Assembly: GCA_016180955.1 (NCBI GenBank)
Contig: JACPAD010000001.1
Span: forward strand, 75,516 to 139,515
Direction: 5' to 3'
From: Candidatus Zambryskiibacteriota bacterium
Lineage (GTDB): Bacteria > Patescibacteriota > Minisyncoccia > Phycocordibacterales > Zambryskibacteraceae
Length of the DNA: 64,000 nucleotides
The translations under genes and the position numbers were made by a program. The first letter of the stretch is position 1. Each line of letters opens with the position of its first letter. The notes beneath the pieces are model-generated. The model did no database searches, had not been told where the DNA came from, and saw nothing but the letters and a program-made list of their open reading frames with translations. Shown in pieces: positions 4,314 through 20,437 of the stretch.

Positions 4314-4326
4314 AAATTAAATAATT

Positions 4327-6102
4327 ATGCTTTCTACTAAATTTGCAAGCAGCTTACGGCATAAGTCTATTCGACGACATGGCCAAAGCGCGATACCGAT
4401 GAAGAAGCCAGCAGACATAATCCCTCCTATTAATGACGCTTTGCGCATCATTCCTCTCGGCGGCGTCGAGGAGATCGGCAAAAATATGACGGTCGTCGAA
4501 TTTAAGGACGACATTATCGTCATTGATGCGGGCATCCAGTTTACCGACGACGATACGCCGGGTATCGACTATATCCTGCCCAACGTCAAATATCTCGAGG
4601 ACCGCAAGGATAAGATCCGCGCCCTCGTCATTACCCACGGCCACTTAGACCACATCGGCGGCATTCCTTATCTCATTACCCGTCTTGGCAACCCGCCAAT
4701 CTACACCCGCGAGTTCGGCGCGCTCCTCATCAGAAAGCGCCAAGCGGAGTTCCCTCATCTTCCTCCGCTCGATATCCGCATCGTGGACAGCGGCGACCAA
4801 TCCATCCCCATCTCGCCAAACTTTAAAGTGCGCTTCTTCGGTCTTACTCACTCCATACCCGACTCAACCGGCATCATCATCGAGACCCCTTACGGCGACA
4901 TCGTCAATACCGGCGATGTCCGCGTCGAGAACGAGAACGGCGTTGTCGCGGAGAAAGAGCTTGAGCAATACAAGATGTTCAAGGACAGGAACATCATTCT
5001 CTTTACCATGGATTCGACCGGCATCGAGAAGCCCGGTTTCTCGCCCTCCGAGGCCTCGATACTTAAAAATATCGACGCTATAGTCAAGGACGCTCCCGGC
5101 CGCATCATCATCGCCACCTTTGCTTCCCAAGTGGAGCGCATTATCGAGTTCTTGAAGAGCGCCCGCCGCTACGGCAGAAAGGTTTTGATCGAAGGTCGCA
5201 GCATGAAGACCAACGTGGAGATTATCAAGCACCTAAACCTCGTCGACACTACCGACATTGTCCCTATCGAAGAGATTGAAAAATATCCGCCCAACAAGAT
5301 TATGATTATCGCCACCGGCGCCCAAGGCGAGGAATTTGCCGCCCTGATGCGCATGTCCAATAAGACCCACAAATACGTGCGGCTGGAGCGTTCCGATACC
5401 ATTGTCTTATCTTCCTCTGTTATCCCGGGCAACGACCGCGCCGTCGAGAAGCTCAAAGATAACCTTTTCCGTCATGACGCCAAGATTATTACCTACCTCG
5501 ACTCCGACGTCCACACCTCGGGACACGGCAAACGGGGCGAACTTGAGTGGATACATAAGCAGATTAATTACAAATACTTCATGCCGGTGCACGGCAGCCA
5601 CTTCCGCCTCAAGATGCACGCCGAACTGGCGGCCTCTCTTGGCTGTCCGCGCGAGAATATTATTGTGCCCGAGAACGGTTCTATCATCGAAATCCGTGAC
5701 GAAGGCCGCCAGTTCTTGAAGCTTACGGAAAAAGCGCCATCGGACGATATGGTTGTCGAAGGGCTTTCCATCGGAGATATCTCCGAAGTAGTCATCCGCG
5801 ACAGGAAGATGCTTGCCGAGGATGGCATCTTTGTCATCATCGCCCTTATCAATACCCGAAACGGCCGTTTGAAGAAGAGTCCGGATATCATCGCCCGCGG
5901 CTTCGTCTACTTGCGCGAATCGCAAGAGCTTTTAAGCGAGGCCAGAGTGATCATCAAGCGCTCCATCGAATCCGCCGCCGCGGGCTCCAACCCCATCAAC
6001 TTCGACCACGTCAAGAACGTGGTAACCGAAGACATTTCCCGCTTCTTATTTCAGAGGACAGCCAAAAAACCCATCGTCATTCCTGTTATCCTCGGTGTCT
6101 AG
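4327..6102 (+). CDS. rnj: Ribonuclease J (metallo-beta-lactamase / beta-CASP RNase); likely start at Met near 4399 (MKKPADII)
   Basis: HxHxDH motif ITHGHLDHIGGIPYL. Beta-CASP region and C-terminal domain colinear with RNase J1/J2. Confidence 0.85.
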   Translation: MLSTKFASSLRHKSIRRHGQSAIPMKKPADIIPPINDALRIIPLGGVEEIGKNMTVVEFKDDIIVIDAGIQFTDDDTPGIDYILPNVKYLEDRKDKIRALVITHGHLDHIGGIPYLITRLGNPPIYTREFGALLIRKRQAEFPHLPPLDIRIVDSGDQSIPISPNFKVRFFGLTHSIPDSTGIIIETPYGDIVNTGDVRVENENGVVAEKELEQYKMFKDRNIILFTMDSTGIEKPGFSPSEASILKNIDAIVKDAPGRIIIATFASQVERIIEFLKSARRYGRKVLIEGRSMKTNVEIIKHLNLVDTTDIVPIEEIEKYPPNKIMIIATGAQGEEFAALMRMSNKTHKYVRLERSDTIVLSSSVIPGNDRAVEKLKDNLFRHDAKIITYLDSDVHTSGHGKRGELEWIHKQINYKYFMPVHGSHFRLKMHAELAASLGCPRENIIVPENGSIIEIRDEGRQFLKLTEKAPSDDMVVEGLSIGDISEVVIRDRKMLAEDGIFVIIALINTRNGRLKKSPDIIARGFVYLRESQELLSEARVIIKRSIESAAAGSNPINFDHVKNVVTEDISRFLFQRTAKKPIVIPVILGV

Positions 6103-6141: not shown

Positions 6142-7278
6142 ATGTGGAAGACTATCAGGATCTTCGTGCTCGCCTTTTTTATCTCGCTTAATTTCGGATT
6201 GCTTCTATATATCAACTCCTCGTTTCTAAGTATTTTCTTTCCTTCGTGGATCGTTAGCCTGCTATTCATCCTGGGGGCCATGGGCAATATTACTCTTTTC
6301 TTTTTGGCGCCGAGATTTTTGAAAGTTTTGGATAAATCGTTTTTACTTTTTCTTTTTCTCGTCATTGCATTTTTATCCGGCCTTTATATGTCCACGGCTA
6401 CAGGTGCGGCGGGAGTAGCTATTGCCTTTCTCTCTTATTCAAGTGTGATTTATATGATCTACTACTGCCTCGACATTTTTCTTGAAGAGCTTTCCGTAGA
6501 TCGCCATACCGGCGAGTTGAGAGGGCTTTACAGCATCTTTTTAAACGGCGGCATCATGCTCGGGCCGCTTTTGGTCGTTCTGATAGCCAGAGACGATAAT
6601 GTCAGGCCAGTTTATCTTGTTGGGGCGGCACTCCTTATCGTTGCCGTGCTTCTTTTGTCAAACTCTTTCAAAATTAAAAACAATCATCATAAAGAGCCAA
6701 TACCGTTGCCTTTCAAAAAGTGGCGGCACTCCGCCAATATTCGCCGTGTTACTCTAGCTAAATTAGTCTTAGAGATATTCTTTACGCTTATGGTCATCTA
6801 CACTCCTCTCTACCTTCATAATGAACTTGGTTTCGCGTGGAGAGAACTTGGCATCATCTTTACGATAATGCTTTTGCCTTTTGTGATATTTGAATGGCCC
6901 GTGGGAGAATTGGCCGATCGCTTCTGGGGTGAGAAAGAGATGATGTCCTTGGGTTTTTTTATCACCGGGTCCGCTCTTCTTATTATGCCTTTCCTCGACA
7001 AAGTCTTTGCCGCTTGGCTTCTAATCCTTCTTCTCTCACGCGTGGGCGCGAGTATTGTTGAGATTACAACAGAGAGTTATTTCTTCAAACAGATTAGCGC
7101 TTCTGAAACGGGCATGTTGAGTATCTTTCGCTTAGTCAGACCGGTCGGCATTATTCTCGGTGCTCTTATTGGTGCACTGACCCTTCAAATCCTTGCTTTT
7201 ACTACAATTTTCTTCGTCGTCGCTTTCGTGATATTTCTCGGCATTCGCGAGAGTGCTTACCTCAAAGATACTCTCTGA
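6142..7278 (+). CDS. Polytopic membrane transporter (MFS-like)
   Basis: 378 aa. About 10-12 predicted TM helices with a central loop, resembling the major facilitator superfamily. No specific motif assigned. Confidence 0.45.
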   Translation: MWKTIRIFVLAFFISLNFGLLLYINSSFLSIFFPSWIVSLLFILGAMGNITLFFLAPRFLKVLDKSFLLFLFLVIAFLSGLYMSTATGAAGVAIAFLSYSSVIYMIYYCLDIFLEELSVDRHTGELRGLYSIFLNGGIMLGPLLVVLIARDDNVRPVYLVGAALLIVAVLLLSNSFKIKNNHHKEPIPLPFKKWRHSANIRRVTLAKLVLEIFFTLMVIYTPLYLHNELGFAWRELGIIFTIMLLPFVIFEWPVGELADRFWGEKEMMSLGFFITGSALLIMPFLDKVFAAWLLILLLSRVGASIVEITTESYFFKQISASETGMLSIFRLVRPVGIILGALIGALTLQILAFTTIFFVVAFVIFLGIRESAYLKDTL

Positions 7279-7894: not shown

Positions 7895-8215
7895 GGGCCT
7901 TATCTTACAATATAATTCCAGAAACGTACCCGGGAGGAGCCCTTGGTAGACTATTCAAACCCGCGAAAGTGGCCAGTGGGCCTGCTCATCGCCACCAAGC
8001 AGCTCGTGCTTGATCGGCTCAAGCTCAATCCCCACGATGCTCGCGAGCAGGCGGAACTTGCACGCATTGACGAAGACCTCAGGCGTGCCGAAACCCAACC
8101 ACAGCGCTGACGAAAGAATCGTCAGCGCTGTACCGTATTATCTAGTACCAAGAAGCGCCACGAATTTCATCGAATCAAATGAAAGCCGCCCGAAAGCACG
8201 ACGGCTTTCTGGCGG

Positions 8216-8746
8216 CTAGTCGGCAAGAGCTTCGCCCAAGAGGTCCATCACCCTGCCGAGAGACAAAGAGTAGATCTCCGAGACGACCATGTTGACTTGA
8301 TCGTTGTTGGATGGACGGAGAGCGAGAAAGTCAGCGACATCTCTGAATCCAACCACGACCAGATTTTCTTGCGGTATTTGCACCAGATTGTCCTTCAATG
8401 AAGAAGGGTTTTGCAGACTCTGACCCATGCTGAAGACCACAATCGTGACGATTCCTCCATTCAGGACTTCGCCAAACACTTGAGCCATTCTGCCGCAGAA
8501 GACCGAGTCATCCCAGATGAAGATCTTCTGCCCGTAGGCAAAGAGCTCGTTATTGCAGTACATCTGGCCGCCGCGCTTCTCGAAGCGGGACCTCTTCATT
8601 ACCCAACGCCCAAGCACGAACTGAGACTGGATTTTCTCGGCGGAGAATTCAGGGTGATTCTTGAGGTCAATCCCGGCCTGACCCTGTCCCGAAAACACGG
8701 CTGGAAATAGAACCAGCACCAGAATGCAAGCTAATGCACTTCGCAT
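8216..8746 (-). CDS. Secreted hypothetical protein (signal peptide)
   Basis: 176 aa. N-terminal MRSALACILVLVLFPAVFSGQGQAG signal peptide. A hairpin lies downstream at ~8174-8210. Confidence 0.4.
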   Translation of the reverse strand: MRSALACILVLVLFPAVFSGQGQAGIDLKNHPEFSAEKIQSQFVLGRWVMKRSRFEKRGGQMYCNNELFAYGQKIFIWDDSVFCGRMAQVFGEVLNGGIVTIVVFSMGQSLQNPSSLKDNLVQIPQENLVVVGFRDVADFLALRPSNNDQVNMVVSEIYSLSLGRVMDLLGEALAD

Positions 8747-8830
8747 TTCTACCTCCTAATAACTGTCCATGGTCATGCTAACATAATCGTAATTGAAAAA
8801 AGCTTAAAATTCCTGTATCTTAACGTATAT

Positions 8831-8901
8831 TGCGGGATCGTCTAATGGTAGGACTGCAGATTCTGGATCTGCGTATCTTGGTTCGAGTCCAAGTCCCGCA
8901 G
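8831..8901 (+). tRNA. tRNA-Gln (anticodon CUG)
   Basis: Cloverleaf read by eye. Acceptor TGCGGGA/TCCCGCA with U1-A72 (Gln hallmark). Anticodon stem GCAGA/TCTGC, loop TTCTGGA. T-arm CTTGG-TTCGAGT-CCAAG. Confidence 0.8.
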
Positions 8902-8996
8902 CCTCTATAAAACTCACCTCATTTTCGGGGAATTTTTGGCGCGCGGCGCGGAGCGCCGAGTATGGAAATAAAGGGGAATCTTCTATACGCCGGTCG
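8897..8996. repeat. Left terminal inverted repeat of tRNA-Gln-adjacent cassette (pairs with 11830-11918; 9-bp indel tataaaact)
   Basis: The reverse complement of 11830-11918 matches 8897-8996 base for base apart from one 9-bp insertion. The repeat starts inside the last 4 nt of the tRNA. Confidence 0.75.
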
Positions 8997-10379
8997 GGTT
9001 CGAGCCGAAGATTTTGGGAGTAGAGATTTTTTGGAGGGGAGGTCGTTCCTTTGAGCGGCTTCAGCTAAGCTTGAAGCCACATTTAGCCATTCCTGCATCG
9101 GTTCGAGCCACGCTTTAGCGTTCCTTTCTAAATTACTTATTTTCTCTTCAAAACTTTTCTTATTAGAGAAAAGTTTTGAGCGCTCTTTGAGATAGGTTTC
9201 TCGGTCTATGTCTTGGGCTATGTAGATATCTAAGAGTCTCTGTATTTTCTCGGAGATAGTAGAAACCCTGTTTCGAAGGTCTTCAATTATTACTGCGCTT
9301 TCTTGCTCGGCCTTCTTTTCATCTTCTTTCATTAACTTTTCAAATTCTTCAGCCCAACGGCTCGGCATAGATGAGCCGTTGAGGATTTCGTTAACCTGTT
9401 CTAACAGCGCTTCTTCTCTTATATGCGGTTCGTTGCAAGGAGTCGTTTTGGACTTCTTCGTGCAATGGTAATAAATATATTTATGGACATTGCCGTTCTT
9501 CTGTCTTTTAACCTTATCCTCTGCCGTTATCATCATCCCGCAAGTAGCACAGCGTAGAAGCCCGCAGAAAGCTTTTGGCTCATTATGTGGCTTCATAGGA
9601 TGGCCTCGCTCAAGGATTACATCTTGGACTTTATCCCAGAGTTTCTTACTAACTATCGGAGGATGCTTACCCTCGTGAATTTCTCCACCATAGAAAAAGT
9701 GGCCATAATAGAATGGATTTGAAAGAATCCACTTAACTCTATCCTTGTGCATTTTCTTTCCGCTTATGGTTCTAACATTTCTCTCGTAAAGAAAATTAGA
9801 AACATCTTCCAGCCGAGCATCGCCGTTTGAATAAAGCTCAAAAGCTTGTTTGAGTATTGGAGCTTTCTTTCTATCCACCACAATAGTTCTTCTCCTTGTA
9901 TCGTTTAAATATCCAGTGGGAGCGGTGCTTGGAAATTCGCCTCGCTTAACCTTTGCCCTTAACCCCCTTTTTACATTAGTACTTAAATCTCTAATAAATT
10001 GGTTGGCCATACCAAACTCCACAGACATCATTAAGACATTGTCTGTGGGGTAGTAACTTCTATCGTGTATAAGCAAGTGCTGAATAATGCCTTGCTGAAG
10101 CATCCAGCTGATCTGTCCGCCGTCTACCGGATTACGGGCAAGGCGATCTAATTTCCAGCACACAATACCTTGCGCCTCGCCCTTTTGAATCTTTTTGACC
10201 ATTTCGTTAAAGACAGGTCTGTCAGGCATTTTAGCCGTGCGCTTTTCCACGAATTCTTCTGTAATAGGCAGACCTTCTTTCTTGGCTAAAGCTCTTAATT
10301 CTGAAAGCTGGGCTTCAATAGAAAGTACTTGTTTGTCTTCGACATCTGTAGATTTTCTAGTGTAGAGAAAGTAATTCAT
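8919..10379 (-). CDS. Large serine recombinase (resolvase/invertase catalytic domain + recombinase domain + zinc ribbon + coiled coil)
   Basis: N-terminus YTRKSTDVEDKQVLSIEAQ (catalytic Ser in the RKST context) ... GIVCWKLDRLARN. Zinc ribbon CGLLRCATCG...YYHC. The C-terminal ~20 codons run into the inverted repeat and may be read-through. Confidence 0.85.
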   Translation of the reverse strand: MNYFLYTRKSTDVEDKQVLSIEAQLSELRALAKKEGLPITEEFVEKRTAKMPDRPVFNEMVKKIQKGEAQGIVCWKLDRLARNPVDGGQISWMLQQGIIQHLLIHDRSYYPTDNVLMMSVEFGMANQFIRDLSTNVKRGLRAKVKRGEFPSTAPTGYLNDTRRRTIVVDRKKAPILKQAFELYSNGDARLEDVSNFLYERNVRTISGKKMHKDRVKWILSNPFYYGHFFYGGEIHEGKHPPIVSKKLWDKVQDVILERGHPMKPHNEPKAFCGLLRCATCGMMITAEDKVKRQKNGNVHKYIYYHCTKKSKTTPCNEPHIREEALLEQVNEILNGSSMPSRWAEEFEKLMKEDEKKAEQESAVIIEDLRNRVSTISEKIQRLLDIYIAQDIDRETYLKERSKLFSNKKSFEEKISNLERNAKAWLEPMQEWLNVASSLAEAAQRNDLPSKKSLLPKSSARTRPAYRRFPFISILGAPRRAPKIPRK

Positions 10380-10387
10380 GGTTAAGT

Positions 10388-10969
10388 TTATCCAACTTGC
10401 CTAGTCCAATCTCGTGCAATACTTTCTATTCGCCCCACCTCAAGTTCTGGTAGCAAGCCTGTATGCATAATTATATTTCGAGATAATTCCAGATCGTTCA
10501 AACGAGAAGAAACCCAATGTTGGTCAGGGAATAAATCAGAAAAATCCTGCCAATTATTTATGATTAGCTGTGATAAATTCGCAAAAGTAGTATAACCAAT
10601 CATCGCTGATGCTCTAGGGGTATGATATTTATTTTTCTCCTCTTTCTCTTTTAAATCAGTTGACGCTTTTTTAATTTTTTCACTCACACAATTAGTTTCC
10701 CACCAACCAGCGCCGTGCCTCTCGCTAAGCCTATCGTCTATGAGCTCCCGAACAGCATTTTCAATACAATAAAACAAGGCATACACCGTGGCCATTCGAC
10801 TAGCCTCATGAATTAAAATCGGACTAAAGTCTGTTTCCTCTATCTTTGCTACAGGGCTTAGTGGAACGCGAATCCCAATTCCTTCATTTTCCAAAGTTTT
10901 CAGGTCCTGTTGAGCAAGAAGGCCATTGAAAACCATCTTTTTAAGACGCGAGACGTGATAATGCTTCAT
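10388..10969 (-). CDS. HEPN-domain protein (Abi/Swt1-like; C-terminal R-x4-H motif)
   Basis: 193 aa, all-helical. C-terminal LELSRNIIMHTG fits the HEPN Rx4-6H nuclease motif. 8 bp upstream of the recombinase gene, same strand. Confidence 0.5.
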   Translation of the reverse strand: MKHYHVSRLKKMVFNGLLAQQDLKTLENEGIGIRVPLSPVAKIEETDFSPILIHEASRMATVYALFYCIENAVRELIDDRLSERHGAGWWETNCVSEKIKKASTDLKEKEEKNKYHTPRASAMIGYTTFANLSQLIINNWQDFSDLFPDQHWVSSRLNDLELSRNIIMHTGLLPELEVGRIESIARDWTRQVG

Positions 10970-11580
10970 TCTCCAAGTAAATTATCCCGAATACTCTTAA
11001 ATATTGCGTTATAAACGCTGATATCGGTAGTAGCTGGTAAGTGAATTTGAATGTTTTGACAGAATTCTATCTGTTTTCCATTCTCAATAGGCAATTTAAG
11101 TGGTAGCATAATATCCTTATCCTTTTTCTCATCAACTGGTTTTTCTTTCACGCGTGGAGAAACACCAAATTTTGCCAAAGCCGCAAGCGTCTTAAATGTT
11201 GCTAAGTATCTGCCAACACTTGCTTCATCCTTGCCCGTTGTACGTGAAATTGCTCCCTTAATTTCACTATCACTTGCTTTTTGGATTTCAGTATTAATAT
11301 TAAATAGATCCCGATATAACTCATTCATTCTTTCCCCAAGAACAAATTGCCAATCCGTCTCATCCTTGAGTCTGTCGTAATATTCTGTAGGCGTTCCCTC
11401 CTCCGTGATAAAACCAAGTCTTTTAAAAAGCGGGATAATGGCTCGGTCATTAGAGCTAGAAAATCCTAAATTTTTTAAAAATTCATGAGTGAATTTAGTA
11501 GGTTTAGCAGCAGTTCTTATTTTTGTAAGAATTGCCTCAATTTTGTTATTAGAAAGCATGTAAGGATATGAATCAGTCAT
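10966..11580 (-). CDS. Hypothetical protein, partner of the HEPN gene (4-nt overlap)
   Basis: 204 aa, no recognisable motif. Translationally coupled to the HEPN gene. Confidence 0.4.
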   Translation of the reverse strand: MTDSYPYMLSNNKIEAILTKIRTAAKPTKFTHEFLKNLGFSSSNDRAIIPLFKRLGFITEEGTPTEYYDRLKDETDWQFVLGERMNELYRDLFNINTEIQKASDSEIKGAISRTTGKDEASVGRYLATFKTLAALAKFGVSPRVKEKPVDEKKDKDIMLPLKLPIENGKQIEFCQNIQIHLPATTDISVYNAIFKSIRDNLLGE

Positions 11581-11678
11581 GATGTTGTATTAAATAAATA
11601 AAAGATTTTGACAGGACGTATTACGAATTACAGAGCAAAGCTACTAAAGTGTAAGATATTTGTGTCAAACTGTAAATC

Positions 11679-11738
11679 AAGGGAGCTTCGCTAATGCGAA
11701 GAACGTGCGCGCGAAAGGGCGGGTGGGTCAAGCGCACA
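11679..11738. ncRNA. Copy 1 of a duplicated ~60-75-nt structured element (aagggag - variable hairpin - gtgcgcgcgaa.ggg.gggtgggtcaag.gcaca); function unknown
   Basis: Direct comparison with 17738-17815. The flanks are conserved and the hairpin sequence differs but keeps its stem structure. Confidence 0.3.
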
Positions 11739-11829
11739 CACGAAACAGAACGACCGACCCGAACCCAAGTATTTAAAAATCTCCCCTCCAAAATCTTCCG
11801 GCTTTGGATTTTCTGAACCCCACCCTCCA

Positions 11830-11918
11830 CGACCGGCGTATAGAAGATTCCCCTTTATTTCCATACTCGGCGCTCCGCGCCGCGCGCCAAAAATTCCCCG
11901 AAAATGAGGTGAGGCTGC
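11830..11918. repeat. Right terminal inverted repeat of the cassette
   Basis: Exact reverse complement of 8897-8996 apart from the 9-bp indel. Confidence 0.75.
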
Positions 11919-12003
11919 TTTGTATGACCCAATCCGAACCTATTTCCAGAAATTATAATGCAGATTAACCTTACCGCCCAGCGCCTTCGGCGCTGGGCTT
12001 GGC

Positions 12004-12082
12004 CTCGCCCCTTTCCGCTATCATACTTTCAATGTTGGCGGTGATAAGACTTTTTTGAATGGAATGAGCGGAAAGGGGCGAG
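12004..12082. other. Long stem-loop: 15-bp perfect stem (tcgcccctttccgct / agcggaaaggggcga) with a ~48-nt loop, preceded by a second hairpin at 11977-11997
   Basis: Read directly. Located downstream of the minus-strand gene ending at 12089. No canonical T-run follows. Confidence 0.4.
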
Positions 12083-12088
12083 AAAATT

Positions 12089-12730
12089 TTAAAACAAAAC
12101 ATTATTGTAAAATCTAAAAGATTTTGCTGGAGATTTAGTTAATCTAAAGCTCCTGACGTAGCTCTTGCCTCTAAAATTTTCCCATTTACCATCCCACTCT
12201 ACTAAAAATAAAAATCTTGTAGGTCTCAGAGCGTTTTTACTGACTATTACTATTTCAAATAAATAATTTCCTACCGGCAAAGCATTTCTAATTGTTCCAC
12301 TGGGATAACCCTCAGCCATAAGATGTAAAATTTCTTCATTGTCACAGATATAACAGACATCTAAGCGCCTAGAGTGTTTTGGTAGAATGTCAATTGGAGC
12401 TATTGATGGTTCGTGTGCCCACTTTAATTTAACAGGCGACCTAAAACTAGCTAATGCATTAAATTTTGAACCTTCTTTTTCCCAAATTTTAGTAATGTAT
12501 GCCTCGGCATTTCGAGAAACTTCAAATCCTCGATTTTTAACCATTAAATGTAGCCATAAGGACTGCGGTTTATTGGGGTGGTCGACAAGAGTAACTTCAT
12601 AATATGTTTCTGAAGGGACAAAAACTACTTTATGCTTAGACTTATAAAGCATCCATTGCAAAAAGGCATAAGGAATTGCAATTAAGGTAAGTAGTGAAGC
12701 TAACCAAGGAATTGTAATATTTTCTTCCAT
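12089..12730 (-). CDS. Membrane-anchored hypothetical protein
   Basis: 213 aa. One N-terminal TM helix, then a soluble domain with no recognised motif. Last gene of a three-gene minus-strand operon. Confidence 0.4.
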   Translation of the reverse strand: MEENITIPWLASLLTLIAIPYAFLQWMLYKSKHKVVFVPSETYYEVTLVDHPNKPQSLWLHLMVKNRGFEVSRNAEAYITKIWEKEGSKFNALASFRSPVKLKWAHEPSIAPIDILPKHSRRLDVCYICDNEEILHLMAEGYPSGTIRNALPVGNYLFEIVIVSKNALRPTRFLFLVEWDGKWENFRGKSYVRSFRLTKSPAKSFRFYNNVLF

Positions 12731-12742
12731 TACTTCAAATTT

Positions 12743-13117
12743 TTATTCTGGTCTACAATAAAATTCCAATCTGTATCCGTTCGGGTCATCAAACCAGATA
12801 AATTCCTTATTTCCATACTTATCAATCTTCACTCCGTTATTATAGATACCAGCTTCATTAAGAACTTTCTCAAAACCTCTTAATTCTTCGGCAGTCCTCA
12901 CTCCAAAAGCCAAATGATTTAGACTACCTTTGTCTTTATCAATCTTTTGGAAGTCTCCATCAGACAACGCAAGGTATATCGTTGATTCTCCTATTTTATA
13001 TGCCATATATTCCTCATCTAAATGGGATGGGCTACCTAAAAAGGCAGTATAGAACTTCTCAGTTTCCTTAAGATCCTTAACTATCAAAACTATGTGGTCT
13101 ATGAATGAGGGTTTCAT
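12743..13117 (-). CDS. VOC-family protein (glyoxalase / bleomycin-resistance / dioxygenase fold)
   Basis: 124 aa. IDHIVLIVKDLKETEKFY...LNHLAFGV...GYRLEFY follows the paired beta-alpha-beta-beta-beta VOC pattern. Confidence 0.65.
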   Translation of the reverse strand: MKPSFIDHIVLIVKDLKETEKFYTAFLGSPSHLDEEYMAYKIGESTIYLALSDGDFQKIDKDKGSLNHLAFGVRTAEELRGFEKVLNEAGIYNNGVKIDKYGNKEFIWFDDPNGYRLEFYCRPE

Positions 13118-13743
13118 TTCAAATTATTTAGCCTATCAAGTATTTGTTTTGTAAATTTTATTCTTTCCGCAGAAATAGAAGTGGTAAAAGAATTCAGCAA
13201 TTCATAAAAATCTTTGTCTTCTAATTTAATAACCCTGATTGCTTCTACGGGAGCTAAAGACCACTTATCTTGAAGTTCAAACCAGGCTCGTATGGCAAAT
13301 TCATAAAATACTCCAGCATAGAAAAATTCCACCATAGGATTATCACAATATTTTTCTATCTTGAGTTTCCAGCTATCTAATTTCTCAAATCGCTCCAAGA
13401 CACCATTTTTATATAGAGTTAGTGGACCTTTACTAAAATCTTCCTCTGTTTTAGTTAAAACTTTAGAGAGCTTACCCTCAGAGTTATCAAGCAGAATTTT
13501 TAACGGCCATAGTGGGCCTGACGGAATAGTTAGCGGTTTATCCTCGTCTGGCCAGTTCTTAAAAGTAATATCCAGACGCTCACCCTCAAAATCTATAAAC
13601 CCGCCATTTCCTTTCTTTGGACCAAGAAGAAATATATCCCAATCACTTCCGCTAGTTTCTTTTCCTTTTGCGCGAGAGCCGGCAAGAAGAATTACTTCTG
13701 GGTCGTGTTCTGTTTTGATGTATTTAATAATCTTGCCTTCCAT
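13114..13743 (-). CDS. Nucleotidyltransferase (Pol-beta superfamily, KNTase/ANT-like) with C-terminal helical domain
   Basis: GSRAKGKETSGSDWDIFLL matches the GS...DxD NTase signature. 4-nt overlap with the VOC gene. Confidence 0.6.
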   Translation of the reverse strand: MEGKIIKYIKTEHDPEVILLAGSRAKGKETSGSDWDIFLLGPKKGNGGFIDFEGERLDITFKNWPDEDKPLTIPSGPLWPLKILLDNSEGKLSKVLTKTEEDFSKGPLTLYKNGVLERFEKLDSWKLKIEKYCDNPMVEFFYAGVFYEFAIRAWFELQDKWSLAPVEAIRVIKLEDKDFYELLNSFTTSISAERIKFTKQILDRLNNLK

Positions 13744-13777
13744 ACTTAAAAATTAACAGAAATTAGACTTTTTAGCT

Positions 13778-13801
13778 AACGGCTCAATGGGTTGAGCCGT
13801 T
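13778..13801. promoter_or_regulatory. 10-bp perfect inverted repeat (aacggctcaa tggg ttgagccgtt) in the divergent promoter region between the NTase operon and the five-gene operon
   Basis: Read directly. Sits ~50 bp upstream of the 13852 start. Confidence 0.35.
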
Positions 13802-13851
13802 GATAAATTAGTAAGTTTCAAAAATGATGATTTTGTGGGATTATCTTATGC

Positions 13852-14535
13852 ATGGGAGGGACTATATACATCCTAATCAACGAGGCAATGCCTGGGTATG
13901 TCAAGATAGGAAAAACGACTAATTCAGTCGAGCAACGAATGCTTGAATTATCGCGCTCATCGGCCGTGCCAATGCCTTTTGAATGTTACTACGCGGCGGT
14001 GGTAAAAGACATGAATCAAGTAGAAAGAGCATTCCATGATGCTTTCGGCGACTACCGAATAAATCCGAAAAGAGAATTTTTTAATGTGGCTCCAGAACGA
14101 GTAGTTGCTATCCTCAAGCTACTCACCTTAAAAGAAGTTACACCTGGTAGAAATACTGGTATTGAGACAAAAGAGGATGCGATTGCTATTGAGATAGCAA
14201 GGAAAAAGCGATCGGCTTTCAATTTTAAAATGGTAGGTATTCCAGCCGGAGCGGAGCTTAAGTTTGTCCGTGATGAAAATATTATATGTATAGTAGCTCC
14301 AGACCAAAAACATGTTGTATTCGATGGTCGAGAGATGTCCTCCTCTGAAGCTGCCGCTTCAGCATTAGGTAGCAAGTGGTGGCCTCAAGGTCCTGGCTAC
14401 TGGACTTATAATGGGGAAACTTTAGATGCCCGTCGTTTGCGTATGGAAGAGGGTGATGAACCTACTCCGGAAGAAATAGAAGCTGCAGGTGACCAATGGC
14501 TATCATTGCAAGCAGATATAGCTAGAGGCAAATAA
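13852..14535 (+). CDS. GIY-YIG family protein (T5orf172-like N-terminal domain) with uncharacterised C-terminal domain
   Basis: GTIYILINEAMPGYVKIGKT supplies the GIY and YIG motifs. Conserved Arg/Glu/Asn follow (RMLEL...FNVAPE). First gene of the operon. Confidence 0.6.
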   Translation: MGGTIYILINEAMPGYVKIGKTTNSVEQRMLELSRSSAVPMPFECYYAAVVKDMNQVERAFHDAFGDYRINPKREFFNVAPERVVAILKLLTLKEVTPGRNTGIETKEDAIAIEIARKKRSAFNFKMVGIPAGAELKFVRDENIICIVAPDQKHVVFDGREMSSSEAAASALGSKWWPQGPGYWTYNGETLDARRLRMEEGDEPTPEEIEAAGDQWLSLQADIARGK

Positions 14536-14539
14536 GTTT

Positions 14540-15682
14540 ATGGCAAACAAAAATCTTACAAATGCGAAACGGGCAAAGAACGACGAGTTTTATACCCAAT
14601 ATGGCGATATCCAAAAGGAAATTCAAGCATATTTGGATTTTAGTCCTAATGTATTTCGAGGCAAGGTAGTCTATTGCAACTGTGATGACCCATTCGAGAG
14701 CAACTTCTTTCGTTATTTTGTGCTTAATTTCAACAAGCTTGGATTAAAACAACTTATTACTACCAGCTACAAACCTTCGCCGATTGCCAATACGGAGCTT
14801 GTATTACAGTCTTCTCTTCTCCCTGGCTATGAAGGTAGTATCGTGAGAAAACCATCAGAATCAAAAGGTCGACCAAAAATAACTGCCAATAAATTTATTA
14901 TTAATGAAGTGCAGGATGTGGACGGCGACGGCGAGTTCAATTTGAAGGATGTTGCTAAGCAGTTAAAGGCAAACAAAAACAACGAATGGATGCCGCTTGA
15001 GAAAGATGGCGATTTCAGAAGTCCCGAGTGCGTAAAATTACTGGAGCAATCTGACATTATAGTGACAAATCCACCCTTTAGTCTATTCCGCGAATATGTT
15101 AAACAACTCTTTGATTACAACAAAAAGTTTGTCATTATCGGCAACATGAATGCAATTATGTATAAGGAAATTTTTCCATTGATGAAGGCCGATAAAATGT
15201 GGCTGGGTAATGGTTTCCATGCCGGAAACGCCTATTTTTCTACCCCTTTTGCCAAAGAATACGGTGAGGGCGTATACAATCCTGAAACAGGTTTGGTAAA
15301 GTTCAGAAATGTTTGTTGGTTTACGAACCTTGATCATGGGCGTCGTCATCAACCATTGCCACTTATGACAATGAGTGAGAATTTAAAATATAGTAAACAT
15401 AAGGAAATCAAAGGTAAAAAATCCTATGATAAATATGACAACTACGACGCAATAGAAGTTTCGTTTACTGACGCTATTCCCAGTGATTATGATGGCGTAA
15501 TGGGTGTGCCAGTTAGTTTTTTAGACAAATATTCACCAGAACAATTTGAAATTATAGGAACTAGCGCCAATGGATTAGTGAGTAATGAATGGAAGTCGCC
15601 ACATTTTAAAAAACATAATAATCCATTTATAGGTAAAAAGCCGATCTTCCAGAGAGTGCTGATAAGACACAGAAAAAAATAA
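14540..15682 (+). CDS. N6-adenine DNA methyltransferase
   Basis: Catalytic NPPF tetrapeptide ([11 protein letters not shown]). N-terminal NDEFYT motif. 4-bp gap after the upstream gene. Confidence 0.75.
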
Positions 15683-15683
15683 T

Positions 15684-16847
15684 ATGAAAACGACTCTAAA
15701 AACTAATATGACTGTCAAAGAAATCTGCGAAGGGTTCGTTTATAACGAACTTGAAGGTAAGGGTTTATTCGGGTTATCTGGCAAGCTTACAATTCAGCCA
15801 GAGTATCAGCGTAACTATATTTATGCAGAAGAAGGAAGGGAGACGGCAGTTATTGATTCAATCCTAAAAGGATATCCACTTGGGTTAATTTACTTCCATA
15901 AGGTTAATGATGATACTTTCGAAGTTTTAGATGGACAGCAACGTATCACCAGTATCGGGCGTTTTGTGAATGAAAAGTTTGCCATTAAAGATGAAAACGG
16001 GATGCAACAAAATTTTAGTGGTATGGCAGAGAACAAGAAAACCAAGATTTGGGAAACGAAATTACTCATTTACGAATGTGAGGGTGAAGAAAGTGAAATA
16101 AAAGATTGGTTTAAAACGATTAATATTGCTGGAATCCCACTTAGGAATCAGGAATTACTCAATGCTGTGTATTCTGGGTCATTCGTGACGTTAGCAAGAG
16201 AGGAATTTAGCAACCGCCAAAATGCGAACATTCAGAAATGGGGCGCATATATATCAGGCAGTGCGAACCGTCAGGATTTCTTAGAGCGAGCACTTGAATG
16301 GGTAAGTAAGGGAAATATTGAGGGCTATATGACGCTTCATCGTCACGATAAAAACATCACTGAGCTAAAGAAATATTTCAACAGCGTGATTGACTGGGTA
16401 TCTAGTGTGTTTACCGATGTAGAAAACGAAATGCGTGGGCTTGAGTGGGGGCGATTATACGAGGAGTATCACAAAAAGGCATATAGTCCGGCAAAAGTAT
16501 CGGCAGATGTGCGTAAGCTCTATGGCGATCCGTATATAAAAAATCGCAAAGGTATTTTTGAATATATTCTTGGCGGTTCAGTTGATACGAAGTTGCTAGA
16601 TGTTCGGATTTTTGATGAAACAATCAAAAGAGCTGTTTATGCAAAACAAACTAGCGAAGCTGAAACTAAAGAGAAATCAAACTGCCCGCATTGTGCTATT
16701 GGACACGATGCTAACAAGAGCAAGATTTGGAGTTTTGGCGAAATGGAAGCAGATCATGTATCCGCTTGGGTTAAAGGTGGTGCGACTTCAGCCAAGAATT
16801 GTCAGATGCTCTGCAAGACACATAATCGAGCAAAGGGTAATCGTTAA
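15684..16847 (+). CDS. DUF262 (ParB/Srx-like, DGQQR motif) fused to a C-terminal HNH endonuclease; GmrSD/SspE-like type IV restriction architecture
   Basis: [15 protein letters not shown] is the DUF262 hallmark. C-terminal CPHCAIGHD...EADHVSAW...[15 protein letters not shown] is a canonical HNH motif. Confidence 0.75.
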
Positions 16848-16871
16848 AGAACTTTAGTGTAAAATTAAATT

Positions 16872-17159
16872 ATGTACTATATATTCACTCTAATTATCGG
16901 TTTTCTACTCGGTTATTTTATTGCTTCTAAAAAGCAGGAGGTCGGCTTCATTTCTAAGCAACAGGAAGAAAAGAAACGGAATAAACAAGCAATTTTTGAG
17001 CTTCTGGAAACTAATCACCCTCTTACCAATAACGATGTGGAAGTAATGCTTGGCATTTCTGACGCCACCGCCACCAGATATTTCGACGAGTTAGAGAAAG
17101 AAGGTAAAGTGCGCCAAGTGGGGAAAACTGGTCGATACGTGAATTACGAAAGAGTTTAA
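16872..17159 (+). CDS. Small membrane-anchored protein with C-terminal wHTH-like domain (paralogous to C-terminus of 17161-17739)
   Basis: 95 aa. N-terminal TM helix. C-terminus LTNNDVEVMLGISDATATRYFDELEKEGKVRQVGKTGRYVNY. Confidence 0.4.
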   Translation: MYYIFTLIIGFLLGYFIASKKQEVGFISKQQEEKKRNKQAIFELLETNHPLTNNDVEVMLGISDATATRYFDELEKEGKVRQVGKTGRYVNYERV

Positions 17160-17160
17160 A

Positions 17161-17739
17161 ATGGCAGAAGAAACTACAACTGAACCTGTAGCAAACGAGT
17201 CGGTTGCCGAACCTGCTCCGGTCCAACCTGAACCGGTAGTAATAACTCCACCCGCATCCGAATCAACTGCAGAACCGGCAGTGGTCGAGGAAACCCCAAC
17301 GCCTCAACCCGCTGAGCCGTTGAATCCAGAGCCGATTTTAGAACCCCCGTTGACTCCTGAACCTGTGCAAGAGCCAGCCATTGAAACTCCACCTATAACC
17401 CATAGTCCCGAGCCTGAATCGGTGTCCCAACCTGAATCTTCCGCTACTTCCGCACCTGTTACCGTTCCCGAACCACAAGTTATCGCCTCTGCTTTTTCAA
17501 TTAGCCGAGCTCACGAACTTCTGATCAAGGCTCGTGAAGCTATACAATTCCGCAAGCGTAAAAAGCTAGAAAAGATTATGAGTATGTTTCTGAAACAAAG
17601 CAGTATCACGAATGATGAAGTGGAGAAACTTTTGCATATCTCTGACGCAACAGCCACACGCTACCTAGACCAACTTGAACGTGAAGGAAAGATTAAGAAA
17701 GGGAATGCTGGAAAGTATCTGTCGTATTCCAGAATGTAA
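17161..17739 (+). CDS. Pro/Glu-rich low-complexity protein with the same C-terminal wHTH-like domain
   Basis: 192 aa. Residues ~10-110 are PEP/TPE repeats. C-terminus ITNDEVEKLLHISDATATRYLDQLEREGKIKKGNAGKYLSY. 1-bp gap from the previous gene. Confidence 0.4.
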   Translation: MAEETTTEPVANESVAEPAPVQPEPVVITPPASESTAEPAVVEETPTPQPAEPLNPEPILEPPLTPEPVQEPAIETPPITHSPEPESVSQPESSATSAPVTVPEPQVIASAFSISRAHELLIKAREAIQFRKRKKLEKIMSMFLKQSSITNDEVEKLLHISDATATRYLDQLEREGKIKKGNAGKYLSYSRM

Positions 17740-17815
17740 GGGAGTATCTGCCGTATCCTCTCTGACCTACGGCAGATGGTGCGCGCGAACGGGAGGGTGG
17801 GTCAAGTGCACATGG
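17738..17815. ncRNA. Copy 2 of the duplicated structured element, starting at the stop codon of the 17161-17739 gene
   Basis: Flanks are conserved with copy 1 (35 aligned positions, 4 mismatches). The hairpin has a different sequence but the same structure. Confidence 0.3.
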
Positions 17816-18117
17816 ATTTTGAGGCCTCGGGCATTTCCGCGACGGGCGTCCTGGCCAACGGGTGAGCATCGCCGCTAAACGAAGGTACTGACTAACGAAA
17901 CTTGCCACTAAACGCAGTAATGAAAACGAGGAAGGGGGTTGTGCAACGACGGAATCCGAAGGAACGAGGATGAGGAGGAGCTGGGGGAAGGATTCCTTCC
18001 TTTCCAACCTCTGGTTTAGTTTCTGATTTTATTGTTATGTAAAAATTAACAGAATCACTATTTTTTGCCAGAAACTTACCATCCATTATAATTTTCCTAT
18101 AGGATTGTTATGAAAAG

Positions 18118-18146
18118 GCCCCGCTCCGACTTCGGTCGGAGCGGGG
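18118..18146. terminator. Bidirectional hairpin ccccgctccgac ttcg gtcggagcgggg, terminator of the minus-strand phosphoesterase gene
   Basis: Perfect 12-bp stem. On the minus strand it is followed by ttttcat. Same hairpin family as 27187-27212. Confidence 0.55.
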
Positions 18147-18153
18147 CCATGCA

Positions 18154-19188
18154 TTACTCAACTTGCGGTTCGATGTAACCGCCGGGGTTATCGTGACACA
18201 CCGTAATACCGGACGGCCACTCTTTCCTCTGCGCGCGTCGCGATGGTACGGGCAAGAATTCCCACTGAAGCTTCCCCGGCCAGAGGTCAATTTGAACGAC
18301 ACCCGGAGTATTCGTGACAACTTCTTCCCCTTCCCTTGCCCACTTGCGTTTCCCTTGCTCTGGATAGTGAGGAACGGCTCCGCCGGCGCCGGCGATGATG
18401 CCTTCGATACCGTAGACACTATCTACTCTCGGCGACCTTCCGTCGATTGGAAAGAGCGAGGGCAGCTTAGCAAACATATGTTCGTGGCCGACAAGATAGA
18501 AGTCCACGCCGTACTTAATGGACTTCCTGAATAACGGCCCAACCCATGACGGACTGGCGAATCGACCCGACGAAAACATCGGCCGGTGATACGCTGTCAG
18601 CACGCACTGGCGTTTGTAACGTTCCCGCAGTTCCCACTCCATCCAGTCCAGCTGTAATTTTGCCAGCGGATTGTTAAGCTTGCCGCCAGTAGTGCTCATC
18701 ACCTCGCTATTCAAGAGCATTACACTCCAGCCACCCCAGTCGAAGACCTGCCAGCCCTTCCCGCGCACACCGTGGTTAAAGGTGTAGTTGAAGAAGAATG
18801 GCACGCCTCCTACGGCCCGTACGCCATCATAGTCGTGATTACCCGGCAGGGAGTAGGCGACGCGTAGGATGGAACCGCAAGAGGTTCTCTCGAGACGTTC
18901 GTACGCTTCGGGAGTGCCTGCACTGCCATCATTGTCGTTAGAGATGTCTCCCAAGAGAAGCACGCGGGCCTGCGGATTCTCTTCCAACAGCCGCACCAGC
19001 ATCCGACAGACTTCTTCGGTATCAGGAGACTTACTGTCCAAATCCCCCACCGCGTAGAGCCGCGCGGGCAGTATCTGGGCCTGACCTAAAGCCGGCAGCA
19101 AAACGAAGAGAGCCAGAAGCAGTATTCTCATATCGCCTCCAGTGAACGATTCTCTTTGTATTAGATACCCACGTCTTAAATTAAGCAA
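18154..19188 (-). CDS. Secreted metallophosphoesterase (calcineurin-like)
   Basis: Signal peptide MRILLLALFVLLPALGQAQ. Motifs GDLD...GDISNDNDG...GNHDY. Confidence 0.7.
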   Translation of the reverse strand: MLNLRRGYLIQRESFTGGDMRILLLALFVLLPALGQAQILPARLYAVGDLDSKSPDTEEVCRMLVRLLEENPQARVLLLGDISNDNDGSAGTPEAYERLERTSCGSILRVAYSLPGNHDYDGVRAVGGVPFFFNYTFNHGVRGKGWQVFDWGGWSVMLLNSEVMSTTGGKLNNPLAKLQLDWMEWELRERYKRQCVLTAYHRPMFSSGRFASPSWVGPLFRKSIKYGVDFYLVGHEHMFAKLPSLFPIDGRSPRVDSVYGIEGIIAGAGGAVPHYPEQGKRKWAREGEEVVTNTPGVVQIDLWPGKLQWEFLPVPSRRAQRKEWPSGITVCHDNPGGYIEPQVE

Positions 19189-19254
19189 GTAAAAGGGAGC
19201 CTGTGTGCTCGGCTCCCCTTTGAATGTCTGAACTGGGTCTAGGTCTCCTTTCGT

Positions 19255-19458
19255 TTAGTCTCCGGCAGTGGGTGGTAGGAGTTTATTCACAAACTTCTCC
19301 GGTTTCTTCTCGGGTTGCGGATCAATCTGGACTCGGAACTCCTCCAACGTTTCAGCGTGACAATGCTGACACAAGCCAAAATATTTGCCGTTTCGCGCTC
19401 GGCACTTGTAACACTTCCACTCTCTGGTTTTCATACAGACCCCCGATACTAGACCCAC
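19255..19458 (-). CDS. Small zinc-ribbon protein (CxxC...CxxC), hypothetical
   Basis: WKCYKCRARNGKYFGLCQHCH. Confidence 0.3.
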   Translation of the reverse strand: MGLVSGVCMKTREWKCYKCRARNGKYFGLCQHCHAETLEEFRVQIDPQPEKKPEKFVNKLLPPTAGD

Positions 19459-19498
19459 AAGAGCGGCCTGTCCTGACTATAACATAAACACAACTTTT

Positions 19499-20437
19499 TT
19501 AAACCTTAAGATATTTTCTTATAGCCAGAACACTCGAGAGCGCGCCGATAAGCACCCCAGAGACGAGAATAATGAAAGCGATTTCGAAGAAATTGCGCAA
19601 ATAATAAGAAAAGATATTGAAGCCGACAAAGAAGCTCTCTGTAACTCTAGCTAGAAAATACGTAATGGGAAAAAAGATGATAAGAGTAATGAGGGTGGCC
19701 ACCAAGCCATAGATAATGCCAACCACCACAAACGGTCCTTGAATGTAGCTTGTCGAAGCACCGACGAGGCGCATGACTGCTATTTCATCCTTGGCGATAT
19801 AAATGGTAAGCCGGATGGTGTTAAAAGCGATAAGCATCGAGATGGCCGCAAGAAGCACTGTCAGTACAAAGCCTAGCCGGTCGGCGACAGAAATAATGGA
19901 GGAAAGTCTATCGATGGCCTGCTTGTTCTGGAAGTAATTAACGCGGTCGATAACGGTCACGCCGGAGGCCGAGAGAGCAGAGCCCTCCTCGAGAAATTCC
20001 GCCACCGAGCCGTACTGCGAGGGGTCGCGGGCTTTGACATTGAGCACCGCACCTAAGGGGTTCTCCCCCAGCTCCTCGAGGGCGGCGAGAATGGATTGGT
20101 CGTTCTGGTGCCGTTCTTTAAATGCAACTAAAGCCTCGTCGCGCGAGACGTAAGTGACAAGGAGCACTTCCGGCAGGGATTCGAGGTCCTGCTTAATGCG
20201 CAGAATTTCTTCTTCTAGAGCTGTCGGAACGAAAGTGACGTTGATGTCTATTTTGTTAGAAAGCTCCGCAAGAGAAGTGCTGAGAATAGCGCCGGCAAAA
20301 GAGATAAGCCCGATGACGACCAGAGTTATCATCATCACTAAAACCGAGGCGAAGGAAACTGTGCTATTCCTCCAGAAGTTGAATAAGCCTGCTCGGATAA
20401 CCCTCTTAATTTTTAATCTAAAATTTTCAGTTTTCAT
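19499..20437 (-). CDS. ftsX: Cell-division ABC transporter permease FtsX
   Basis: 312 aa. Four TM helices with a large periplasmic loop. Immediately downstream of ftsE. Confidence 0.75.
   Translation of the reverse strand: MKTENFRLKIKRVIRAGLFNFWRNSTVSFASVLVMMITLVVIGLISFAGAILSTSLAELSNKIDINVTFVPTALEEEILRIKQDLESLPEVLLVTYVSRDEALVAFKERHQNDQSILAALEELGENPLGAVLNVKARDPSQYGSVAEFLEEGSALSASGVTVIDRVNYFQNKQAIDRLSSIISVADRLGFVLTVLLAAISMLIAFNTIRLTIYIAKDEIAVMRLVGASTSYIQGPFVVVGIIYGLVATLITLIIFFPITYFLARVTESFFVGFNIFSYYLRNFFEIAFIILVSGVLIGALSSVLAIRKYLKV

Follow-up and report, generated by a model that had tools for sequence, protein, structure and literature searches.

Do five tightly packed genes, each encoding a domain compatible with defence, make one defence system? 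This question is raised by a locus in the compact genome of a Candidatus Zambryskibacteria (Parcubacteria) bacterium, which we analysed within a stretch of 64,000 nt from contig JACPAD010000001.1 (hereafter the window). Five consecutive open reading frames (ORFs) on the plus strand, named g1 to g5 in order (Table 1), encode a GIY-YIG-fold protein, an N6-adenine DNA methyltransferase, a DUF262-HNH nuclease and two winged helix-turn-helix (wHTH) proteins. A preliminary description of this DNA had proposed that they form a single uncharacterized defence system with two effectors, and had suggested profile searches and an analysis of gene-neighbourhood conservation as checks. Both have been run. 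The five ORFs exist, with the gaps of 4, 1, 24 and 1 bp that had been described, and in searches of Pfam and PADLOC all five domain assignments hold. However, the block is not conserved in other genomes, and it is highly probable that three units, each with an evolutionary history of its own, lie head to tail here as a mosaic. These units are a T5orf172 singleton (g1), a cassette of methyltransferase and nuclease (g2-g3) and a backbone pair of wHTH regulators (g4-g5). In what follows, M denotes a g2-type methyltransferase, R a g3-type nuclease, and L numbers the loci compared.

The evidence for a mosaic comes primarily from loci that contain a g3 homologue. We compared 83 non-redundant genome loci (from 86 in full), in which g2-type methyltransferases and g1 were sought by tblastn, and 80 metagenome loci that are more divergent (g3 identity 38–81%); counts with hidden Markov models (HMMs) were made over a combined set of 164 loci from other genomes and metagenomes. 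The five-gene block is conserved in none of these 164 loci. Close homologues of g1 are absent from all 83 genome loci (tblastn) and all 80 metagenome loci, and the HMM of the g1 family finds four distant T5orf172 proteins (~25% identical), all of which lie between M and R and none 5' of M. The g4/g5 HMM is positive in three loci (L020, L055 and L107), and among the full 86 genome loci a g4/g5-type gene is likewise present in three. What flanks the pair elsewhere is highly variable, since the ORFs directly 5' of M form 31 clusters from 32 ORFs, i.e., almost all are singletons, and those directly 3' of R form 69 clusters from 81 ORFs, again mostly singletons. Among relatives on long contigs, the one closest to g3 (90% identity, L100/L101) has M and R only, with unrelated flanks and without g1, g4 and g5. 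Finally, the homology boundaries between the window and its relatives coincide with the module boundaries, namely the g1 ORF and the start of g4.

These results bear directly on the idea that the five genes constitute one new system, in which GIY-YIG and HNH effectors would be combined with a self-protecting methylase and with the wHTH pair as sensors or regulators. That idea drew on tight same-strand spacing, on a location in a defence island and on the fact that every domain is defence-compatible. The defence-island setting is borne out, as PADLOC also matches a PDC-M34 pair upstream, and so is the AT-rich character of the region (GC 35–41% at 9–17 kb vs. 46.6% over the whole window), but the tRNA and recombinase that had been described as adjacent are not, with tRNA-Gln (8831–8903) lying 5 kb and the large serine recombinase (8919–10379) 3.5 kb upstream of g1. 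The spacing is no evidence of a functional unit because other island genes on the same strand are just as tightly packed (gaps of 8, -4, 12 and -4 bp), so that close packing is the local norm. Moreover, each module is found alone elsewhere. PADLOC profiles split the region as well, assigning g1 to PDC-S57, g2 to MTase_II and g3 to REase_II, and matching g4 and g5 only by generic wHTH segments. The flanking genes thus do not stand as parts of a system, as the M/R pair is already catalogued by PADLOC as a type II restriction-modification (RM) system and the genes around it occur independently in other genomes. With the block in none of the 164 loci, we regard a single five-gene system as extremely improbable.

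Several observations nevertheless weigh against a clean division into three units. A promoter and terminator scan of the region found nothing beyond shuffle expectation and no convincing signal that separates the five genes, which makes co-transcription of all five compatible with the data. GC content at third codon positions (GC3) is 0.38–0.41 in g4 and g5, as in the island genes, vs. 0.57–0.64 in flanking housekeeping genes; because base composition fails to separate g4-g5 from the island, we left it out of the evidence. Genes of the g4/g5 family lie within 3 kb 3' of g3 in L020 and L107, with other genes between, and immediately 3' in L055. Lastly, T5orf172-type genes show a weak recurrent association with the cassette (4/164 loci), and this association, together with RhuM and Bro-N lodgers described below, means that g1 may not be a wholly random neighbour.

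The first unit, g1, carries a T5orf172 domain (Pfam, 4.8e-18) of the GIY-YIG clan, including the TIY...YVKIG motifs, in agreement with the fold originally described. It belongs to the candidate single-gene family PDC-S57 of PADLOC (PDLC05041) by a full-length profile match (1.7e-69; residues 3–200 vs. profile positions 6–208 of 212), a family for which a literature search returned no paper naming it and no characterization. Invariant positions in the g1 family are Y16, K18, G20, R29 and E75, to which a conserved block at residues 120–200 can be added; the C-terminal domain has no match in Pfam. Close homologues (62–88% identical) occur as single ORFs in unrelated contexts, i.e., directly after dnaK (L088), on a contig of Wildermuthbacteria (L087) and in a different island with a serine recombinase (L089–L091). 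No g2 or g3 is found near the homologues in L087–L091, and DNA similarity between the window and the g1-homologue loci is restricted to the ORF. T5orf172 is a subfamily of GIY-YIG, and phage T5orf172 proteins are documented as homing endonucleases (PMC10448857). With PDC-S57 and the phage homing endonucleases (ICP1-like, T5-like) g1 shares the T5orf172 core, and with phage homing endonuclease genes (PMC10448857) it also shares the form of a free-standing ORF wedged between unrelated genes. Unlike the phage genes, however, its C-terminal domain is not a CapR, DUF723 or DUF4397 zinc-finger DNA-binding domain. Judged from sequence, g1 would move as a single self-contained ORF and appears to be an independent mobile module, with a homing-endonuclease-like selfish gene and a one-gene defence candidate both compatible with what is seen.

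Alternatively, g1 could serve the RM cassette as an optional accessory, being one of a guild of phage-type genes (RhuM, Bro-N, T5orf172 and Fic) that would modulate or extend the operon, for instance by adding a second effector or by acting as an anti-anti-restriction factor. The cassette does accommodate lodgers, since 32 of 139 M-R pairs hold an insert between M and R. The most recurrent is RhuM (13/83 loci by cluster, or 9 ORFs between M and R), the others being Bro-N (5–6), T5orf172-like genes (3–4) and DUF2130 (3–5), and Fic genes recur just outside the pair. Moreover, the 4-bp gap between g1 and g2 mirrors a 4-bp gap from M to a T5orf172 gene in L008 (M at 4200–5378, T5orf172-like gene at 5383–5985). 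Against an accessory role, the inserted T5orf172 proteins are as distant from g1 as noted above and sit elsewhere in the operon, no close g1 homologue is ever seen with the cassette, and the same pattern is expected of selfish genes exploiting a well-expressed mobile operon. On balance, a role for g1 as cassette accessory seems improbable, and we retain the reading of g1 as an independent module. Loci with phage-type inserts or neighbours include L001, L008, L012, L014, L018, L053, L065, L104, L136 and L150; in L001, the methyltransferase is cut down to 186 aa.

The unit at the other end of the block, g4-g5, has a different origin. Both proteins match HTH_24 in Pfam (g4 at 4.1e-5) and share a 45-aa C-terminal domain with 56% identity, so that they are indeed wHTH paralogs, and the earlier portrayal of the pair as membrane-anchored and of low complexity fits an N-terminal hydrophobic helix in g4 and a Pro/Glu/Thr-rich N-terminal half in g5. 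g5 has an exact counterpart (100% identity) at NCBI, encoded in a metagenome-assembled genome of Candidatus Zambryskibacteria, and homologues that are 45–81% identical across Parcubacteria. In L092–L095, g4 orthologues (73–81% identity) lie directly 5' of g5 orthologues, and it is from the start codon of g4 onward that these loci are homologous to the window. The g4-g5 pairs in L092–L096, each with the non-coding element described below on its 3' side, adjoin housekeeping or unrelated genes, with no RM genes and no T5orf172 gene nearby; a tRNA follows ~770 nt downstream in L094–L096, and then rbfA-infB in L094 and L095. This synteny in relatives indicates that g4 and g5 are vertically inherited backbone genes and that the stretch upstream of them is a landing site for foreign DNA. 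The order g5, non-coding element, tRNA, rbfA, infB seen in relatives is broken in the window, where rbfA-infB are located at 53.4–57.6 kb, with a tRNA cluster, ~36–40 kb from g5.

It could still be argued that g4-g5 regulate the neighbouring inserted genes, for instance via a palindrome 5' of g1, and hence form a regulatory unit with them even though it is unconserved. This palindrome has the core CTCAA...TTGAG, related palindromes are present in L020 (5' of the methyltransferase and between g4 and g5), and the three loci with g4/g5-type genes near the cassette point the same way. However, g4-g5 are conserved together with the non-coding element in genomes that lack the cassette, and the palindromes, which are putative sites, are short and few. 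Nor does the pair resemble the regulator of a C-protein-controlled RM system, because g4 and g5 are winged-helix rather than Xre-type proteins, are conserved without RM genes and are absent from 161/164 RM loci. Regulation of the inserted genes by g4-g5 is consequently quite improbable, and the pair is best regarded as backbone.

What remains at the centre is g2-g3, and here the preliminary description proves right in a narrower sense, as methyltransferase and DUF262-HNH protein do form an RM-like pair that is conserved in essentially every locus examined. M lies directly 5' of the g3 homologue in 72/83 genome loci and in 72/80 metagenome loci, the remaining eight metagenome loci all having <800 nt of upstream sequence, and the pairing is kept down to 38–42% g3 identity. 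A few g3 genes, those of L010, L014 and L015, have no EcoRI-type methyltransferase within 3–6 kb upstream. Plasmids of Pediococcus (such as CP146864 of P. pentosaceus) and Enterococcus (such as pBN83-1 of E. faecium) also carry the pair without g1, g4 and g5, as does Flavobacterium phage laban6-1. Serine recombinases homologous to that of the window are encoded near the cassette in L008, L009, L027 and L079, and near the g1 homologue in L089. The distribution of g3 is very broad. There are >8000 homologues, the best 120 of which are 80–94% identical, and when GTDB was scanned with one genome for each species, at least 560 species proved to have a g3 relative. The best 80 loci of that scan (76–87% identical to g3) span >12 phyla, including Patescibacteria, Bacteroidota, Chloroflexota, Omnitrophota, Gammaproteobacteria, Bdellovibrionota, Elusimicrobiota, Nitrospirota, Planctomycetota, Bacillota, Desulfobacterota, Ignavibacteria, Saganbacteria and others. 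A whole-library phmmer search returned 5703 relatives at E <= 1e-3; those at E <= 1e-30 fall into 444 clusters (50% identity), and the ~380-aa architecture persists to 35% identity. By sequence and genomic context, g2-g3 thus appears to be an ancient, essentially obligately paired and highly mobile two-gene RM cassette that PADLOC already files as type II. A literature search for the pair of M and DUF262-HNH protein, and for PF13651, revealed no characterized member in the searchable literature.

The two proteins of the cassette evolve very differently. g2 is, as had been proposed, an NPPF adenine methyltransferase, matching EcoRI_methylase of Pfam (2.8e-125, positions 1–344 of 345) with the TNPPF motif present, and it matches the type II methyltransferase profile MTase_II of PADLOC (PDLC03297) at 4.4e-99. 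In 64 loci with both genes at full length, the mean pairwise identity of the methyltransferase is 62% (74% in its conserved framework), vs. 82% for g3. The variation in M is concentrated in hypervariable stretches at about aa 81–100, 221–260 and 341–375. Typing of 65 sequences (homologues in L003–L086) showed at least 10 discrete types for one of the two main cassettes and at least 20 for the other, with lengths that differ between types; the two assort independently, giving 45 combinations in the 65 sequences. g3 is blind to these types, as its identity is 0.819 between loci with the same partner type and 0.816 between loci with different ones, and g3 proteins that are 96.7% identical are found beside different cassette types. 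In the window, the last codons of g2 (...HRKK) overlap a purine-rich stretch just 5' of the g3 start that may serve as the g3 ribosome-binding site.

g3, for its part, shows no indels, and every block of 20 residues has a mean column conservation of 0.74–0.99. When the window g3 is compared with the others, synonymous divergence (dS) is saturated (>1 or not computable), nonsynonymous divergence (dN) is ~0.07–0.12 and dN/dS is ~0.05. As dS is saturated and dN is low, this conservation reflects purifying selection and not recent spread. The two domains that had been recognized are both present, DUF262/GmrSD_N at 3.8e-22 (LDGQQR) and HNH at 5.3e-6 (CPHC...DH...N...C..HN). Family-wide invariants include Q42, R43, D83, G84 and R87 (the last three in DGQQR), as well as C334 and H358, with C337, D357, N372 and C377 nearly invariant. 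The presence of invariant residues in both sites suggests that the pocket of the nucleoside triphosphatase (NTPase) and the zinc-finger HNH site are both needed. An AlphaFold 2 model of g3, built from an alignment of relatives that are 35–90% identical, has a predicted local distance difference test score (pLDDT) of 92.4. The nearest solved folds are BrxU (9.0), SspE (7.3) and DndI (6.1), and matches also include the HNH domains of McrA, Cas9 and GVE2 (~6.6) and ParB-like PadC (6.0); the Foldseek E-values are weak (>= 0.01). All of the DUF262 proteins among these neighbours sense DNA modification and depend on NTP (PMC10952713; PMC9646914). Searches of PDB sequences, for which g2, g3 and a profile of g3 served as queries, found nothing meaningful, 7p9k vs. 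g3 reaching only E = 0.5, and NCBIfam has no match for g1–g3. The PADLOC models HEC-05, HEC-06 and Orf5 match g3 only over residues ~30–95.

How might such a cassette work? The EcoRI-family methyltransferase would mark adenines in host DNA, and the DUF262(NTPase)-HNH protein would cut DNA without the mark. In the version that we prefer, g3 would not read the target itself; discrimination between self and non-self would come from the methyltransferase or the methyl mark, and the ParB-like NTPase of g3 would act as a switch. This restriction mechanism, including its dependence on the methyltransferase or the mark, is the one that we infer and favour. Variable, recombining cassettes in a modification subunit combined with an invariant NTP-dependent nuclease are a hallmark of type I and type III systems, and SspE and DndI show that a host can license a DUF262 nuclease through the modification of its own DNA. 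These precedents, together with a g3 that is more conserved than M and with the shuffling of cassettes in M, favour a g3 informed by the methyltransferase or its mark. It is a tentative possibility, with somewhat less than an even chance, that g2-g3 represents an unrecognized RM class automatically filed as type II, in which the nuclease has no sequence specificity of its own and is directed or licensed otherwise. Two options can be envisaged. The methyltransferase may guide g3, with its two recombining cassettes setting a bipartite target, which would be type I/III logic without a translocase, or g3 may sense the m6A (N6-methyladenine) mark on self DNA, as SspE senses phosphorothioate. If true, specificity would be re-programmable by cassette exchange with the nuclease untouched.

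The obvious counterproposal is that g2-g3 is an ordinary type II system in which g3 alone recognizes the fixed site of the methyltransferase and cuts it if unmethylated, the variable segments being irrelevant surface loops. In its favour, g3 matches REase_II, the type II nuclease profile of PADLOC (PDLC03418), end to end (4.7e-82, residues 9–386 of 387), g2 matches MTase_II, and type II operons typically have this gene order and a coupling as close as the 1 bp seen here. However, the nucleases of type II systems usually evolve faster than the methyltransferases with which they have to agree in specificity. In the cassette the opposite is observed, with g3 the better conserved partner, free of indels and under purifying selection, and with cassette types that assort independently of a g3 blind to them. 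In addition, the NTPase motif is invariant in g3, the nearest solved folds of the modelled protein point to modification-sensing, NTP-dependent enzymes, and the solitary g3 genes in L010, L014 and L015 would be unexpected. An ordinary type II system is, in our judgement, rather unlikely, although far from implausible. More generally, the invariant DGQQR motif and an invariant R beside a cassette-variable M argue, indirectly, against a classical type II nuclease with a fixed site and no need of NTP.

Comparison with known systems highlights where the cassette, as read from its genes, would fit and where it would not. With type II RM systems as defined by PADLOC and DefenseFinder it shares an adjacent, co-oriented pair of an N6-adenine methyltransferase and a metal-dependent nuclease, with profiles matched end to end, and a mobility that takes it onto plasmids, into phages and into islands. 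It differs in the ParB/Srx-like NTPase domain of g3, in a g3 that is far more conserved than M and in the shuffling cassettes of M. With GmrSD-family type IV enzymes it has in common the N-terminal DUF262 of g3 with its DGQQR motif, but g3 ends in an HNH domain (PF01844) with a conserved zinc finger (CxxC...C..H) rather than in DUF1524, and it does not stand alone, since an EcoRI-family methyltransferase lies upstream in essentially all loci with enough sequence. At 387 aa, g3 is also ~200 residues shorter than GmrSD/BrxU and SspE/DndI proteins (560–594 aa). In contrast to these proteins, to which its sequence similarity is marginal, it is paired with an m6A methyltransferase and is found neither alone nor among Dnd/Ssp genes. 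Type III (Mod/Res) and type I systems are similar in having variable, recombining target-recognition cassettes in the modification subunit and an invariant NTP-dependent nuclease subunit. Res or HsdR alone is harmless, which would fit the few solitary g3 genes. Unlike these systems, however, g3 has no helicase or translocase, its NTPase is ParB-like, its nuclease domain is HNH and not PD-(D/E)XK, and g2 is of the EcoRI family.

Table 1. Features of the locus and its surroundings (positions in the window).
Feature	Position	Strand	Description
g1	13852-14535	+	227 aa; stand-alone T5orf172 (GIY-YIG-clan) protein with conserved C-terminal domain
g2	14540-15682	+	380 aa; EcoRI-family N6-adenine DNA methyltransferase, M subunit of two-gene cassette
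g3	15684-16847	+	387 aa; DUF262 (ParB/Srx-like NTPase, DGQQR) + helical middle domain + zinc-finger HNH; R subunit
g4	16872-17159	+	95 aa; N-terminal transmembrane helix + C-terminal wHTH; lineage-specific Parcubacteria gene
g5	17161-17739	+	192 aa; Pro/Glu-rich N-terminal half + wHTH paralogous to that of g4; Parcubacteria backbone gene
Non-coding element	17740-18005	+	Directly 3' of g5 stop; candidate structured RNA; blastn and alignments with relatives
Perfect palindrome	13778-13801	.	Divergent intergenic region 5' of g1; possible operator or hairpin
Left part of AT-rich island	8831-13743	.	tRNA-Gln, large serine recombinase, PDC-M34 pair, 213-aa protein, glyoxalase-fold protein, nucleotidyltransferase
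PDC-M34 pair	10388-11580	-	PADLOC two-gene candidate system: M34B HEPN_Swt1 3.2e-65, M34A DUF5343 5.9e-67

The g4-g5 backbone includes a conserved non-coding element of ~270 nt right after the g5 stop, which begins with AAGGGAG and continues with two hairpins and further sequence. By blastn, it is matched in L092 (5056–5282), L093 (1954–2180), L094 (1639–1871), L095 and L020 (~6810–7085), and it is syntenic with g4-g5. The sequence of hairpin 1 differs between loci with pairing kept, and its G·U pairs favour the plus strand. No Rfam 15 family matches the element at E <= 0.1 (window 8000–20000; L092–L096), and a search of L020 to E <= 1 gave a single sub-threshold small RNA match elsewhere in that locus. 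Transfer-messenger RNA (tmRNA), RNase P, signal recognition particle RNA and 6S RNA were ruled out, as there is no Rfam or ARAGORN match and, by eye, no conserved tag reading frame. The element is thus a candidate new structured RNA or 3' untranslated region element. A partial copy at 11678–11740 duplicates its first ~70 nt 6 kb upstream. The direct repeats at 11700–11738 and 17774–17812 were considered as attachment (att) sites of an element containing g1–g5; this was rejected as a simple explanation because g4-g5 and the non-coding element are a syntenic backbone in relatives. A further hairpin element at 11995–12082, with a 16-bp stem (12004–12019/12067–12082), is 91–93% identical over 75–87 nt to sequence that lies 3' of the non-coding element in L092 and L094 (L093 has a match of 42 nt at 100%), and is present at both contig ends of L092 in inverted orientation. 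It would seem that the locus downstream of g5 has been duplicated, with rearrangement, at 11.6–12.1 kb.

The palindrome 5' of g1 (AACGGCTCA-ATGGGT-TGAGCCGTT) is unique in the window, with 0 expected by chance. Its 9-mer arm TGAGCCGTT occurs 6 times in the window vs. 0.57 expected, 4 of the 6 between 9.3 and 17.4 kb, and positions other than the palindrome itself are 9372, 17313, 53862 and 61926. Farther upstream, a perfect 84-nt inverted repeat (8913–8996/11830–11913) brackets a 2.8-kb segment with the serine recombinase and the PDC-M34 pair, whose ORFs overlap by 4 bp and adjoin the recombinase. The segment begins 10 nt after tRNA-Gln, the C terminus of the recombinase is encoded within the left arm, and the whole may be a segment that can invert or move, or else an artefact of assembly. 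In L020, a Kaiserbacteria contig, a long inverted repeat (112–306/7337–7612; 81 nt at 100%, 64 nt at 97% and 26 nt) brackets the methyltransferase, g3, a superfamily 1 helicase, g4, g5 and the non-coding element. Long inverted repeats of this kind suggest the bounds of a variable hotspot. Between the 84-nt repeat and the palindrome, a co-oriented trio on the minus strand (12089–13743; spacing of 12 and -4 bp) encodes a 213-aa protein for which neither Pfam nor PADLOC has a match, a glyoxalase-fold protein and a nucleotidyltransferase of the Pol-beta type. These three genes also lie ahead of g1 in L102, which represents this locus in a different sample, and genes in the left part of the island have both low GC and low GC3.

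The significance of these findings is twofold. First, the locus is cautionary, since in the compact genomes of the candidate phyla radiation (CPR) a system is not defined by tight same-strand packing inside a defence island, and one must check whether the block is conserved. Second, the lead worth carrying forward is not the five-gene idea but the widespread cassette that combines an invariant nuclease with a cassette-shuffling methylase. If its nuclease is guided or licensed by the methyltransferase or the mark, the cassette would amount to a minimal RM architecture that can be re-programmed and uses a nucleotide switch of the ParB type, which would matter for the interpretation of methylomes in uncultured bacteria and would link classical RM to BrxU, SspE and DndI.

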